From Clostridia bacterium (GTDB taxonomy: Bacteria; Bacillota; Clostridia; Oscillospirales; RGIG8002): DNA of 64,000 nt. The position numbers and the translations under genes were made by a program. Of this stretch, positions 31,972-41,579 are shown piece by piece; positions within the stretch are counted from its first letter, which is position 1, and each line of letters begins with the position of its first letter. Below the pieces are notes generated by a model, which saw only the letters and a program-made list of their open reading frames with translations, made no database searches and was not told the origin of the DNA. The stretch lies in NCBI GenBank assembly GCA_017616855.1, contig JAFZXI010000077.1, positions 6,710-70,709 on the forward strand, in the 5' to 3' direction.

Positions 31972-33255
31972 TCACTGTTTGGAGAGCTCCTCGAACTCTT
32001 TTCTGTGGTCGAGGAAAACCTTCGCGAGCTTCGGATCGAAATGTGAACCCGCCTCATCGGCGATAATGCTGAAGGCCTCTTCCGTTGACATCGCTTCTTT
32101 GTAGCAGCGTTCGGATATGAGCGCGTCGAAGACGTCGGCGATCGCCATGATTCTGGCGGAAAGGGGAGTTTTTTCTTCCGTGCGGCCTTCCGGGTATCCT
32201 TTGCCGTCCCATTTTTCATGGTGGTAGGTCGCTATATCGGAGGCAAAATCCTGATACGATTCGTCCGCGATACCGTTGAGCACCTCGCGCACAACGTCGC
32301 CGCCGACTGCGGCATGCCGCTTCATTATCGTAAACTCTTCTTCCGTCAGTTTGCCCGGCTTTTTGAGTATGCGGTCGGGAACAACGACCTTTCCGATATC
32401 ATGCATCGGCGCGAGTGTGTAAAGAAGCGCGATGAAATCGTCGGTTATCTCATCGCTGTAAACTCCGTCTTCGCGGGCGAACTCAGCCAGCGCTTTCGCG
32501 TAAGCGCTCGTGCGCGTGATGTGCTCGCCGGTCTCCATATCGCGGTTTTCGATGAGGTTTGCCAGTCCGGAAATGATGTGCTCCTGCATGGCGGACATCT
32601 TTTTCTGGTTCGAGACGAGCTCCGCTTGAATATCCTGTTGGACGAGGTCGTTATAGTAGATGTAGCAGATGCAAGCGCTGATCGCAACGGCGATATATGT
32701 GATATTGAGCTTGAATATCGTCATCGGAAGCATTCCGGCTATGAGCACAACGAGCACCATGCCGATGGTCAGTCTGTCTCTGTGGCGGAATCTCTTGCCT
32801 ACGATAATCATGCTTACGAGCAGGTAGGCCAGACTTGCGAAATAGAAAACTCCGTATATGAAGAAAAGCTTTCCGCGGTGATAGCCGTCCGCGTCGAAGT
32901 AAAACATCCATCCGAAAGGCGCGGCAATGGCTTCCACAAGCAGGTTAACGGAAAAGAATACGATGGCGGTTTTCCTCTGATTGTGGAGACCGAGCGCTCC
33001 GGAGAACAGAATGCCCAAAAGGGGAGAAAGCGAAAACTGGATGACCGTGATAATCGTCAACGGGATCGCAAACGACGGTTTATACTCGATGCCGTGGACG
33101 CAGAACTCCGCCGCGGAGCAAAGCATGACTGCGATGAACGTAAGCAGATACCACACCTTCTGGACCTTGGTGAAACCGGAATAGGTCAGAACGTGAAGCG
33201 TCATCGCGAGCATCAACAGCTCAGTCAAAAGAATTACGCAAGAATAGAAAGTCAT
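31972..33255 (-). CDS. membrane-bound HD-GYP domain protein (putative c-di-GMP phosphodiesterase)
   Basis: N-terminal polytopic membrane domain (~6-7 TM), then HD-GYP signatures (…HDIGKVVVP…, …HHEKWDGKGYP…). No clear SD or promoter upstream of ATG 33255. Confidence 0.85.
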   Translation of the reverse strand: MTFYSCVILLTELLMLAMTLHVLTYSGFTKVQKVWYLLTFIAVMLCSAAEFCVHGIEYKPSFAIPLTIITVIQFSLSPLLGILFSGALGLHNQRKTAIVFFSVNLLVEAIAAPFGWMFYFDADGYHRGKLFFIYGVFYFASLAYLLVSMIIVGKRFRHRDRLTIGMVLVVLIAGMLPMTIFKLNITYIAVAISACICYIYYNDLVQQDIQAELVSNQKKMSAMQEHIISGLANLIENRDMETGEHITRTSAYAKALAEFAREDGVYSDEITDDFIALLYTLAPMHDIGKVVVPDRILKKPGKLTEEEFTIMKRHAAVGGDVVREVLNGIADESYQDFASDIATYHHEKWDGKGYPEGRTEEKTPLSARIMAIADVFDALISERCYKEAMSTEEAFSIIADEAGSHFDPKLAKVFLDHRKEFEELSKQ

Positions 33256-33307
33256 TATGAATTTTCAAAAAATGTATAAATAAGGCGAGAGCGCGAATGC
33301 TGATTTC

Positions 33308-33394
33308 TCCGCTTCGCTGCGCTTGCGGATTTGGAGCTCCGTTTCGAATCCTTTCCGAATCCGACTAATAGAATGAGCCACCCGTTTGGGTGGC
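33308..33394. repeat. copy 1 of an ~87-nt direct repeat (contains the 19-nt core and half of a palindrome)
   Basis: Matches 33622-33709 with two substitutions and one small substitution/indel site, by eye. Confidence 0.85.
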
Positions 33395-33430
33395 GTTGAG
33401 TGGCCATGCGTGCGCTACTGCAAATCACAA

Positions 33431-33527
33431 CTTTCGATTCTCGCTTGCGCAACGCTCCGCCGGAGCGTTGCTGCCGAAGCCGCTGCGCGCCTTCGGAGCT
33501 CCGTTTCGAATCCCTCCTTCTCCGCCA
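33431..33527. repeat. variant repeat unit: two 10-bp hairpins, the 19-nt core, and an inverted copy of the tRNA-Ser 3' end
   Basis: Hairpin GCAACGCTCC-gcc-GGAGCGTTGC (33449-33471), hairpin CCGAAG…CTTCGG (33474-33496), core GGAGCTCCGTTTCGAATCC (33495-33513). Positions 33505-33527 equal the reverse complement of 33719-33741. Confidence 0.85.
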
Positions 33528-33553
33528 AAATAAAGAGCCGCCAGAATGGCGGT
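33527..33553 (-). terminator. intrinsic terminator inside the repeat array
   Basis: Minus strand reads ACCGCCA-ttc-TGGCGGC followed by TCTTTATTTT. Confidence 0.55.
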
Positions 33554-33567
33554 AACTGTAAATGGAT

Positions 33568-33718
33568 CGGAGGGATTCTCTTCTCGCTGACGCAACAGTC
33601 CACCGGACTGTTGCTCCCAAATCCGCTTCACTGCGCTTGCGGATTTGGAGCTCCGTTTCGAATCCTTTCCAAATCCGACTAATAGAATGAGCCACCCAAT
33701 TTGGGTGGCTCATTCTAT
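33568..33718. repeat. full repeat unit: two 10-bp hairpins, core, third complementary arm, and a ~17-bp-arm palindrome abutting the tRNA
   Basis: Hairpin GCAACAGTCC-acc-GGACTGTTGC (33592-33614). CCAAATCCGC (33617-33626) pairs with GCGGATTTGG (33639-33648), which can alternatively pair with CCAAATCCG (33669-33677). Core at 33647-33665. Palindrome AATAGAATGAGCCACCC…GGGTGGCTCATTCTATT (33681-33718). Confidence 0.85.
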
Positions 33719-33811
33719 TGGCGGAGAAGGAGGGATTCGAACCCTCGAGATGCTTTTGACACCTACACGATTTCCAATCGTGCGCCCTCGGCCAAGCTAG
33801 GCGACTTCTCC
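33719..33811 (-). tRNA. tRNA-Ser (anticodon GGA), CCA encoded
   Basis: Hand-folded cloverleaf. Acceptor GGAGAAG/CTTCTCC, anticodon arm CACGA-TTGGAAA-TCGTG, long variable arm (class II), T-arm GAGGG-TTCGAAT-CCCTC, discriminator G, CCA. Confidence 0.9.
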
Positions 33812-33844
33812 GAGTAACGCGCCCCGAAAGGGGCAACGCATATT

Positions 33845-33873
33845 ATTATACTTGCGGGTTTGCGTTTTGTCAA
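33845..33873 (-). promoter_or_regulatory. consensus sigma-A promoter upstream of tRNA-Ser
   Basis: Minus strand reads TTGACA (33873-33868), 17 nt, then TATAAT (33850-33845), ~33 nt upstream of the mature tRNA 5' end. Confidence 0.65.
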
Positions 33874-33896
33874 TCTATTTTTTCGCGTATCGACGA

Positions 33897-41331: not shown

Positions 41332-41349
41332 ACTTAAGCGGAGAAAACC

Positions 41350-41486
41350 AAATCTTTTCTCGTCCGGACTAAGACCGAAAAGGTCAATACCGTCGGTCAC
41401 GGAATCACACCGTGTCGGCTCCGGGAAGCGCCGGAGTTAGCGGACTTTTACCGCCGGTGGGGAATCTCACCCCGCCCCAAAGATTT
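41350..41486 (-). promoter_or_regulatory. FMN riboswitch (RFN element) aptamer
   Basis: Minus strand reads AAATCTTTGGGGCGGGGTGAGATTCCCCACCGGCGGTAAAAGTCCGC…GGTGTGATTCCGTGACCGACGGTA…AGTCCGGACGAGAAAAGATTT. This matches the conserved RFN blocks, and P1 is closed by AAATCTTT/AAAGATTT. Confidence 0.88.
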
Positions 41487-41579
41487 ACAATGACAGTATA
41501 TTACCGCGCCGCCGAAATGTCAATAGAAAACGCCAAAATGTGCTATTTTTGATTTTTTTATTAAAATATCAAATTACTC

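Follow-up and report, generated by a model that had tools for sequence, protein, structure and literature searches.

A stacked array of tRNA-tail copies beside a Clostridia tRNA-Ser(GGA) gene is best read as scars of recombination at a tRNA insertion hotspot

The intergenic segment between a tRNA-Ser gene and a gene encoding an HD-GYP protein raises the question of whether an array of repeated hairpins represents a regulatory RNA or has arisen in some other way. The segment is located in a stretch of 64,000 nucleotides from a Clostridia bacterium contig (JAFZXI010000077.1), which is referred to as the window throughout. A sequence-only reading of the window had proposed that the segment is a functional structured RNA outside the known RNA families, either a leader or riboregulator of the HD-GYP gene or a non-coding RNA linked to the tRNA. 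The two flanking genes were both found on the minus strand, as that reading had described, and their annotation is as follows.

33719..33811, minus strand: tRNA-Ser(GGA) with the CCA encoded (ARAGORN; Rfam RF00005, 52.2 bits)
33845..33873, minus strand: promoter of the tRNA-Ser gene, TTGACA-17-TATAAT, matching the consensus at 12 of 12 positions and kept in relatives
31972..33255, minus strand: HD-GYP gene (Pfam HD_5, 2.7e-30, and HD)

The tRNA was the sole match found in the region with Rfam 15 at both the gathering and permissive thresholds, in agreement with the earlier statement that no known RNA family is matched; weak matches to sX4, plastid and miRNA entries were due to the tRNA or to a palindrome. 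The array is present in two independent metagenome assemblies (L029 and L001), which excludes an assembly artefact. Folding was found to be far above that of shuffled sequences on both strands (z = -10.4 for the plus strand and -7.9 for the minus strand), as is expected of DNA full of inverted repeats.

Every sequence feature listed in the sequence-only reading was confirmed to be present. The 19-nt core (GGAGCTCCGTTTCGAATCC) was recovered in three exact copies on the plus strand, at 33333, 33495 and 33647, compared to a mean of 0.05 matches in shuffled sequence. The near-identical direct repeat was recovered as well, although it is 83 nt long with 94% identity (33308-33390 and 33622-33704) and not ~87 nt as had been given, and the palindrome described at 33681-33718 has perfect arms of 19 nt (33681-33699 and 33701-33719) and not of ~17 nt. 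Strong hairpins had been reported to precede the units on the minus strand, and these were recovered as the palindrome and two terminator-like hairpins found in a hairpin scan (33552-33538 and 33394-33377). The first hairpin of the units (hairpin 1) is formed by GCAACGCTCC/GGAGCGTTGC in unit B (33449-33471) and by GCAACAGTCC/GGACTGTTGC in unit C (33592-33614), and both versions show the pairing preserved by double substitutions that had been noted. Hairpin 2 of unit B can be read off the sequence as CCGAAG (33474-33479) and CTTCGG (33491-33496). In unit C, GCGGATTTGG (33639-33648) pairs either upstream with 33617-33626 or downstream with 33668-33677; the attenuator-like three-arm pairing described earlier is present there but is limited to this unit and shows no conservation.

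When read in the sense of the tRNA, the array consists of three head-to-tail modules, each with the order of tRNA 3' end or remnant, terminator hairpin, inverted T-loop copy with the core, hairpin 2 and hairpin 1. The annotated parts are listed below in this direction.

33681..33719, no strand: perfect palindrome with 19-nt arms, which acts as the module 1 terminator hairpin and joins the tRNA trailer (right arm) to the end of unit C (left arm) (repeat search)
33576..33680, plus strand: unit C, with hairpin 1 (33592-33601/33605-33614), three-arm hairpin 2 (33617-33626, 33639-33648 and 33668-33677) and core (33647-33665) with inverted T-loop copy TTCGAATCC (repeat search; covariance model R1, 95.8 bits)
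33569..33578, minus strand: direct remnant of the tRNA 3' end, 10 nt, GAATCCCTCC, at the start of module 2 (repeat search)
33528..33553, minus strand: terminator-like hairpin of module 2, CCGCC ATTCT GGCGG followed by CTCTTTATTT (hairpin scan)
33505..33547, plus strand: inverted copy of the tRNA-Ser 3' end in unit B, with 23 of 23 identical positions from T loop to CCA (33505-33527), and 43 nt with 86% identity when the first terminator arm is included (repeat search)
33433..33513, plus strand: remainder of unit B, with hairpin 1 (33449-33458/33462-33471), hairpin 2 (33474-33479/33491-33496) and core (33495-33513) (repeat search; R1, 92.3 bits)
33367..33394, minus strand: terminator-like hairpin of module 3, GCCACCC AAAC GGGTGGC followed by TCATTCTATT (hairpin scan; repeat search)
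33308..33366, plus strand: unit A, with core (33333-33351) and hairpin 2 arms (33325-33334 and 33354-33363, one mismatch), lacking hairpin 1 (repeat search; alignment)
33286..33312, plus strand: inverted copy of the tRNA 3' end in degenerate form, with 70% complementarity to 33721-33747, which is weak and could be due to chance (repeat search)

The repeat search shows that the units were built from the tail of the tRNA-Ser gene itself, a relationship that the first reading had missed. The tRNA linkage that it had suggested for the element is borne out, as the units carry copies of the tRNA-Ser 3' end. Units A and C share the layout of unit B with a diverged 'acceptor' part and a preserved terminator arm, and the left arm of the tRNA-trailer palindrome recurs at 33367-33383. 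The inverted part of the module comprises the T loop and the 3' strand of the T stem, which are joined at TTCGAA to the constant core ACGGAGCTCC, while the 10-bp hairpin of the module takes the form GCAA-NNN-TCC / GGA-NNN-TTGC. The head-to-tail modules occur with periods of 143-162 and 314 nt, and no further copy was found in the remaining 63 kb of the window.

Hairpin 1 was compared between the window and other genomes. For the two copies of the window aligned with L022 and L023, all cells are paired and three of the nine pairs show double changes. With L016 added, 98% of the cells are paired, double changes occur in five of the ten pairs and no shuffle attains the covariation score; the five sequences, each a hairpin with 4-nt flanks, were aligned by hand, and the L016 hairpin was picked by eye. 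Compensatory changes in hairpin 1 are, on these alignments, apparently real and extend to other genomes, but they are no proof of an RNA. Palindromes can persist by selection on DNA hairpins or terminators, and quasi-palindrome correction during replication can also keep them. Of the pairings noted in the earlier reading, those of hairpin 1 thus recur elsewhere; hairpin 2 and the three-arm arrangement have no counterpart in the aligned L022 or L023 sequences.

The same locus was compared in relatives over the stretch from the tRNA-Ser gene to a heavy-metal-associated (HMA) gene, using contigs that were reached via members of the MreB cluster (MreB at least 90% identical). An HD-GYP gene occupies this stretch in the window, L029 and L001, a sigma-70-like gene in GCA_016648615, and a 654-aa CapR/DUF4379/NUMOD gene on the opposite strand in four contigs (L023, L024, L027 and L028), while in L022 the stretch is empty with a single unit. 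Two further contigs, L033 and L035, end short of the HMA gene and only their tRNA-proximal side is visible: L033, with an MreB identical to that of the window, has a plain tRNA terminator followed by a 70%-identical HD-GYP allele with the array absent, and in L035 the module 2 terminator and inverted tRNA end directly follow the tRNA. The first unit differs in L030, and the more distant L037 and L038 have the terminator followed by other genes, with neither the HMA gene nor the unit.

A unit is found upstream of the HMA gene in relatives and also flanks an unrelated inserted gene. The L023 insert is bounded by direct repeats of ~125 nt, each containing a terminator and a unit, and a 19-nt direct copy of the tRNA 3' end lies just inside its left end, beginning midway through the T loop (AG|CGAATCCCTCCTTCTCCGCA). 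This direct remnant is less decayed in L023 and L016 than in the window. Comparison of the empty L022 with the occupied L023 gives a common breakpoint after CGCCGACGAG. These contigs show the tRNA-Ser site as a hotspot where single genes appear to have been inserted, replaced or lost among close relatives, and the HD-GYP gene is best regarded as variable cargo of this hotspot, seemingly without regulation by a conserved leader. The core has diverged in the aligned L022 and L023, and one nucleotide is deleted from the unit B core in both L001 and L029, from which the array itself is seemingly under no purifying constraint. An integrase or transposase was absent among the genes called within ~6 kb of the copies in the gene lists of the relatives of the window.

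A scan for the exact core in species-representative genomes and JGI metagenomes gave one true relative, a metagenome-assembled genome (MAG) labelled Treponema (L004 and, with the same sequence, L006). The other exact matches were set aside, with L002, L003 and L005 lying in apparently coding DNA with no tRNA nearby, and L007 and L008 also lacking a tRNA. Three of the four tRNA-Ser genes in L004 have an inverted copy of their own T arm 12-14 nt downstream, and these copies are cognate, with GTGGG following the tRNA with CCCAC and GGGGG following the tRNAs with CCCCC. Each of them joins ACGGAG(C/T)TCC at TTCGAA. Such a constant sequence next to a variable T stem is the junction expected from site-specific exchange. 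The core is identical in the Clostridia genome and the Treponema MAG despite the different tRNAs, which implies lateral spread or an unnamed constraint.

A covariance model of the units detected the L004 copies weakly and also pointed to a Clostridia contig, L016, in which the order downstream of a tRNA-Arg(CCT) is a palindromic terminator and then AGCGGATTCGAA, the inverse of the T loop and stem of this tRNA. The inverted copy is followed by a 10-bp hairpin (GCAAGGTTCC GGG GGAACCTTGC), a 21-nt direct copy of the tRNA 3' end starts at AG|CGAATCC, and the terminator and inverted copy recur with a period of 147 nt. In viral scans the 19-mer gave 0 matches and a 15-mer gave 39, none of which has the GGAG prefix or adjoins a tRNA tail. 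BLAST searches of phages and plasmids returned nothing meaningful, and no paper turned up when the literature was searched for the core.

On balance, the array was probably produced at the DNA level, by repeated recombination at the tRNA-Ser(GGA) 3' end, and is not an HD-GYP mRNA leader; scars of recombination or attachment sites at a tRNA insertion hotspot are the best-supported reading. The modules would be scars of the attachment-site type, left where exchanges had their crossover within the T loop. A tRNA 3' end, a terminator and a unit would arrive with every incoming piece and take the place of those already there, with a recombinase presumably acting in trans. The hairpins may persist as terminators, as palindromes recognised by the recombinase, or by self-correction of palindromes in replication. 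Sequence comparison supports recombination through the inverted and direct copies of the tRNA 3' end together with the terminator arm; the variable content between the tRNA-Ser and HMA genes with the L023 insert flanked by modules; the presence or absence of modules at strain level (L033, L035, L030, L037 and L038); and the same architecture at tRNA-Arg(CCT) in L016 along with the constant and variable junctions of L004. The indel and divergence seen in the core of relatives, the promoters that lie after the units in L001, L022 and L016, and the known wide occurrence of tRNA fragments as attR-type remnants count in its favour as well.

Several observations count against recombination. The absence of an integrase or transposase gene within ~6 kb of the copies is one of them, as are modules of only ~150 nt that mostly lack cargo and a 19-nt core without any difference between a Clostridia genome and a Treponema MAG. 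Classical integration yields direct repeats, which alone do not explain the inverted T-loop copy, and pairing of hairpin 1 through changes in five of the ten pairs would fit a functional RNA as well. The comparative sample is small, at about four lineages. The unexplained inverted T-loop copy, the core found in two phyla and the lack of a recombinase gene nearby leave room for a tRNA-trailer RNA or a new attachment site.

Attachment sites in tRNA genes reportedly leave partial tRNA copies, the attL and attR remnants of integrative elements, as described by Williams in 2002. The array resembles such remnants in having copies of the tRNA 3' end beside an intact tRNA with identity starting inside the T loop, in the strain-variable genes beside the tRNA and in the direct repeats that flank the inserted gene. 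Remnants of the attR type are known and widespread (PMC9897764). Unlike them, the array has no integrase nearby and its cargo is a single gene or none, and unlike classical att scars it is made of stacked modules of ~150 nt, each of which also includes the T loop in inverted form and a conserved hairpin. We know of no such inverted T-loop feature in tycheposon-type elements. The tycheposon-type hotspots of Prochlorococcus (bioRxiv 10.1101/2020.12.28.424599) are reportedly anchored at tRNAs in a similar way, with repeated att-like fragments and small cargo swapped between strains, but these elements reportedly encode their own recombinases. The G+C-rich hairpin with a T-rich tail that begins each module on the tRNA strand is like the intrinsic, partly bidirectional terminators found downstream of tRNAs, and A and T runs flank hairpin 1 in L022; the stacking, the conservation of the core and the inverted copies of the tRNA are not accounted for by terminators alone.

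Recombination sites that fold as single strands are known from the attC sites of integrons and from the attP hairpin of CTX phage, which is used by XerCD. By analogy with the way these work, two inverted half-sites tens of bases apart could fold into one duplex site, and the single-gene cargo, the strain-variable content and a structure conserved above sequence are further points of likeness. Unlike attC, the array has no R/L box consensus and no extrahelical bases, and no integron integrase or attI is seen. An integron attC was rejected for the hairpin since its arms GCGCAAC/GTTGCGC misfit RYYYAAC ... GTTRRRY, it is just 23 nt long and no integrase is nearby.

A bolder version of the recombination reading, which we hold only tentatively and consider unlikely, is that the modules form an undescribed family of short elements at tRNA 3' flanks, in which a GCAA-NNN-TCC hairpin and a constant junction sequence are combined with the T loop and T stem of the host tRNA itself in inverted form, and which occur at tRNA-Ser and tRNA-Arg genes in Clostridia and the Treponema MAG. 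A recombinase provided in trans would use them, folded or paired, as its attachment sites, with cassette-like exchange of single genes beside tRNAs as the outcome. If true, an attachment site used in trans would mean light-weight single-gene swapping beside tRNAs in gut and digester anaerobes; the genes involved at this locus encode c-di-GMP enzymes as well as a sigma-factor-like and a nuclease-like protein, among others. For annotation, the lesson of the locus is that hairpin repeats with apparent compensatory changes beside a tRNA can be recombination products and not regulatory RNAs.

Replication errors alone, where template switching at palindromes and unequal crossing-over copied the tRNA tail with no recombinase and no function involved and quasi-palindrome correction mimics compensation, would account for the long near-perfect palindromes centred on terminators in the window and L035, for the head-to-tail modules with their periods, and for the recombinase gene not being seen nearby. 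We regard this explanation as unlikely, as the junctions TTCGAA|A (inverted) and AG|CGAATCC (direct) recur in independent lineages and at different tRNAs, the constant sequence adjoining the junction is common to two phyla and gene-sized insertions at the site are flanked by modules. An invertible switch between the inverted repeats was also considered and rejected, as L035 is a deletion-type and not an inversion variant.

A functional structured RNA tied to tRNA genes could be a 3' trailer that pairs with its own T arm or acceptor end, with a role in processing, stability or termination, or a small RNA from the opposite strand. The paired state of hairpin 1 (98%, with double changes in five of the ten pairs) fits this explanation, and so do the covariation of the inverted segment with the cognate T stem in the window, L004 and L016 and the identical core across two phyla. 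The core in tRNA sense forms a small hairpin in which the single substitution of L004 falls on a bulged base, and two G-U-type pairs favour the plus strand. Against it, the hints on the strand disagree, and in the Clostridia copies a terminator stands between the tRNA and the inverted segment, and little of the segment should be co-transcribed with the tRNA. The unit is also absent in L033 and L037, the core has diverged in L022, two assemblies show an indel in the core of unit B, no Rfam family matches and most single-unit folds are no better than shuffles (z between -0.02 and -1.9). We therefore judge this RNA explanation to be rather improbable. A tRNA-like fold of the plus-strand units was rejected, with ARAGORN and the Rfam tRNA model both negative and the 5' acceptor strand missing. 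A primer-binding site of a retroelement was rejected too: the complementarity of unit B to the end of the tRNA extends over the CCA, but the L004 copies stop before the 3' terminus.

It is very unlikely that the array is a selfish REP, BIME or MITE repeat that is dispersed and lies here by chance. Such repeats are similar to the array in their short, palindrome-rich units and strain-variable copy number, and the short-read contigs of relatives break at the locus. Unlike them, the units are not dispersed but lie beside tRNA genes only. The other 63 kb of the window contain no copy, and the scans of JGI metagenomes and species-representative genomes gave the exact core in a single further lineage, with a tRNA gene adjacent in every case; there are no evident target-site duplications with terminal inverted repeats. 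Dispersal of this kind, which the first reading had named as an outcome that would speak against its own interpretation, is not what was found in the window or in the scans, where the core is rare.

The evidence on whether the array acts in cis as a leader or attenuator for HD-GYP comes from the position of the array, from homologues and from promoters. The array sits between the tRNA and the HD-GYP start codon, alternative pairings exist in unit C, and the window is without an 85-nt segment of L001 that carries a promoter and ribosome-binding site, so that HD-GYP transcription might start upstream; the scaffold gap of L029 falls exactly there, and the missing segment could be a real deletion or an assembly problem. 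HD-GYP homologues with 70-78% identity occur in unrelated contexts with ~160-600 nt of upstream intergenic sequence, and no tRNA, core or array was found upstream of them. Good promoters of the sigma-70 type lie downstream of the units in L001 (TTGAAA-17-TATAAT, then a ribosome-binding site), L022 (TTGACT-17-TATAAT) and L016 (TTGATT-17-TATACT), which places the units outside the mRNA of the downstream gene. The leader is accordingly rejected as extremely improbable, given that close relatives have the HD-GYP gene absent, replaced by one of several alternative genes or, as in L033, present and free of the array, that homologues elsewhere lack such an upstream region, that units also precede unrelated genes, that the L001 promoter lies downstream of the array and that the tRNA promoter is separated from the gene by three terminator hairpins on the minus strand. 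The interpretation given in the sequence-only reading is thus partly supported, with the repeats, hairpins, hairpin 1 pairing and tRNA link upheld and the HD-GYP leader not.

Finally, the contigs that were reached via an amidohydrolase neighbour all end within or at the tRNA and give no flank, which fits a repeat that breaks short-read assembly. A flank module used in trans as an attachment site would, if real, account for such assembly breaks at this tRNA in these organisms.

Array-like structures were also observed at tRNA genes in other genomes. The Clostridia contig L016 carries a tRNA-Arg(CCT) followed by two modules, and after them comes a GGDEF gene that has a promoter of its own.

L016 1836-2130: tRNA-Arg(CCT), then two modules with a period of 147 nt, in a layout like that of the window units.

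Two more degenerate core-like pieces (GGATT-GGAGCT and GGAT-GGAGCGAAAGCGAAACAGCGAA) were found in the Treponema MAG L004 at 2400-2540, 3' of tRNA-Ser(GGA), together with two hairpins, and this sequence arrangement suggests that a small array is present there as well.

Short-read contigs from many samples end within the tRNA-Ser gene or at its 3' end (L009-L013, L025, L030-L032, L035 and L039-L042), which is consistent with assembly graphs broken by the inverted and tandem copies of the tRNA tail. An 82-85-nt segment lying between the array and the start codon (ATG) of HD-GYP is found in the independent metagenome assembly L001 and is absent from the window (window 33240-33300 versus L001 340-440). 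A good promoter, TTGAAA-17-TATAAT, lies in this segment of L001 along with a ribosome-binding site. The other independent assembly, L029, has a 100-N scaffold gap where the window is without the promoter segment. The HD-GYP gene of the window may be promoterless, or else the window assembly may be wrong.

The close relative L023 has a gene inserted at the hotspot.

L023 7259-9223, minus strand: hotspot insert gene, 654 aa.

Its protein contains CapR/DUF4379 zinc fingers of the treble-clef type, in repeated copies, along with an I-HmuI NUMOD-like domain, which scores 23.9 bits and is under Pfam's cut-off. The gene may be of the nuclease or homing type.

Variant tRNA-Ser(GGA) alleles with other T arms were found in two strains where the flanking genes are unchanged.

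L032 6913-7003 and L042 2125-2217: variant tRNA-Ser(GGA) alleles (T arms GAGAG TTCAAAT CTCTC and GAGAG TTCGAAT CTCTC).

A short hairpin was observed in the tRNA-Ser leader.

Window 33812-33845, minus strand: hairpin downstream of the tRNA-Ser promoter and ahead of the mature 5' end.

Hairpins occur at the equivalent position in L010, L011, L013, L022, L023 and L037; examples from the window and these loci are GCCCC TTTC GGGGC, GCCAC TTT GGTGC and GCCG CGAAAA CGGC. The hairpin is kept in these relatives though the sequences differ, and so has the look of a conserved hairpin in the pre-tRNA leader.

Elsewhere in the window, an FMN riboswitch was found.

Window 41348-41488, minus strand: FMN riboswitch (RF00050), 92.4 bits, clearly exceeding the gathering score.
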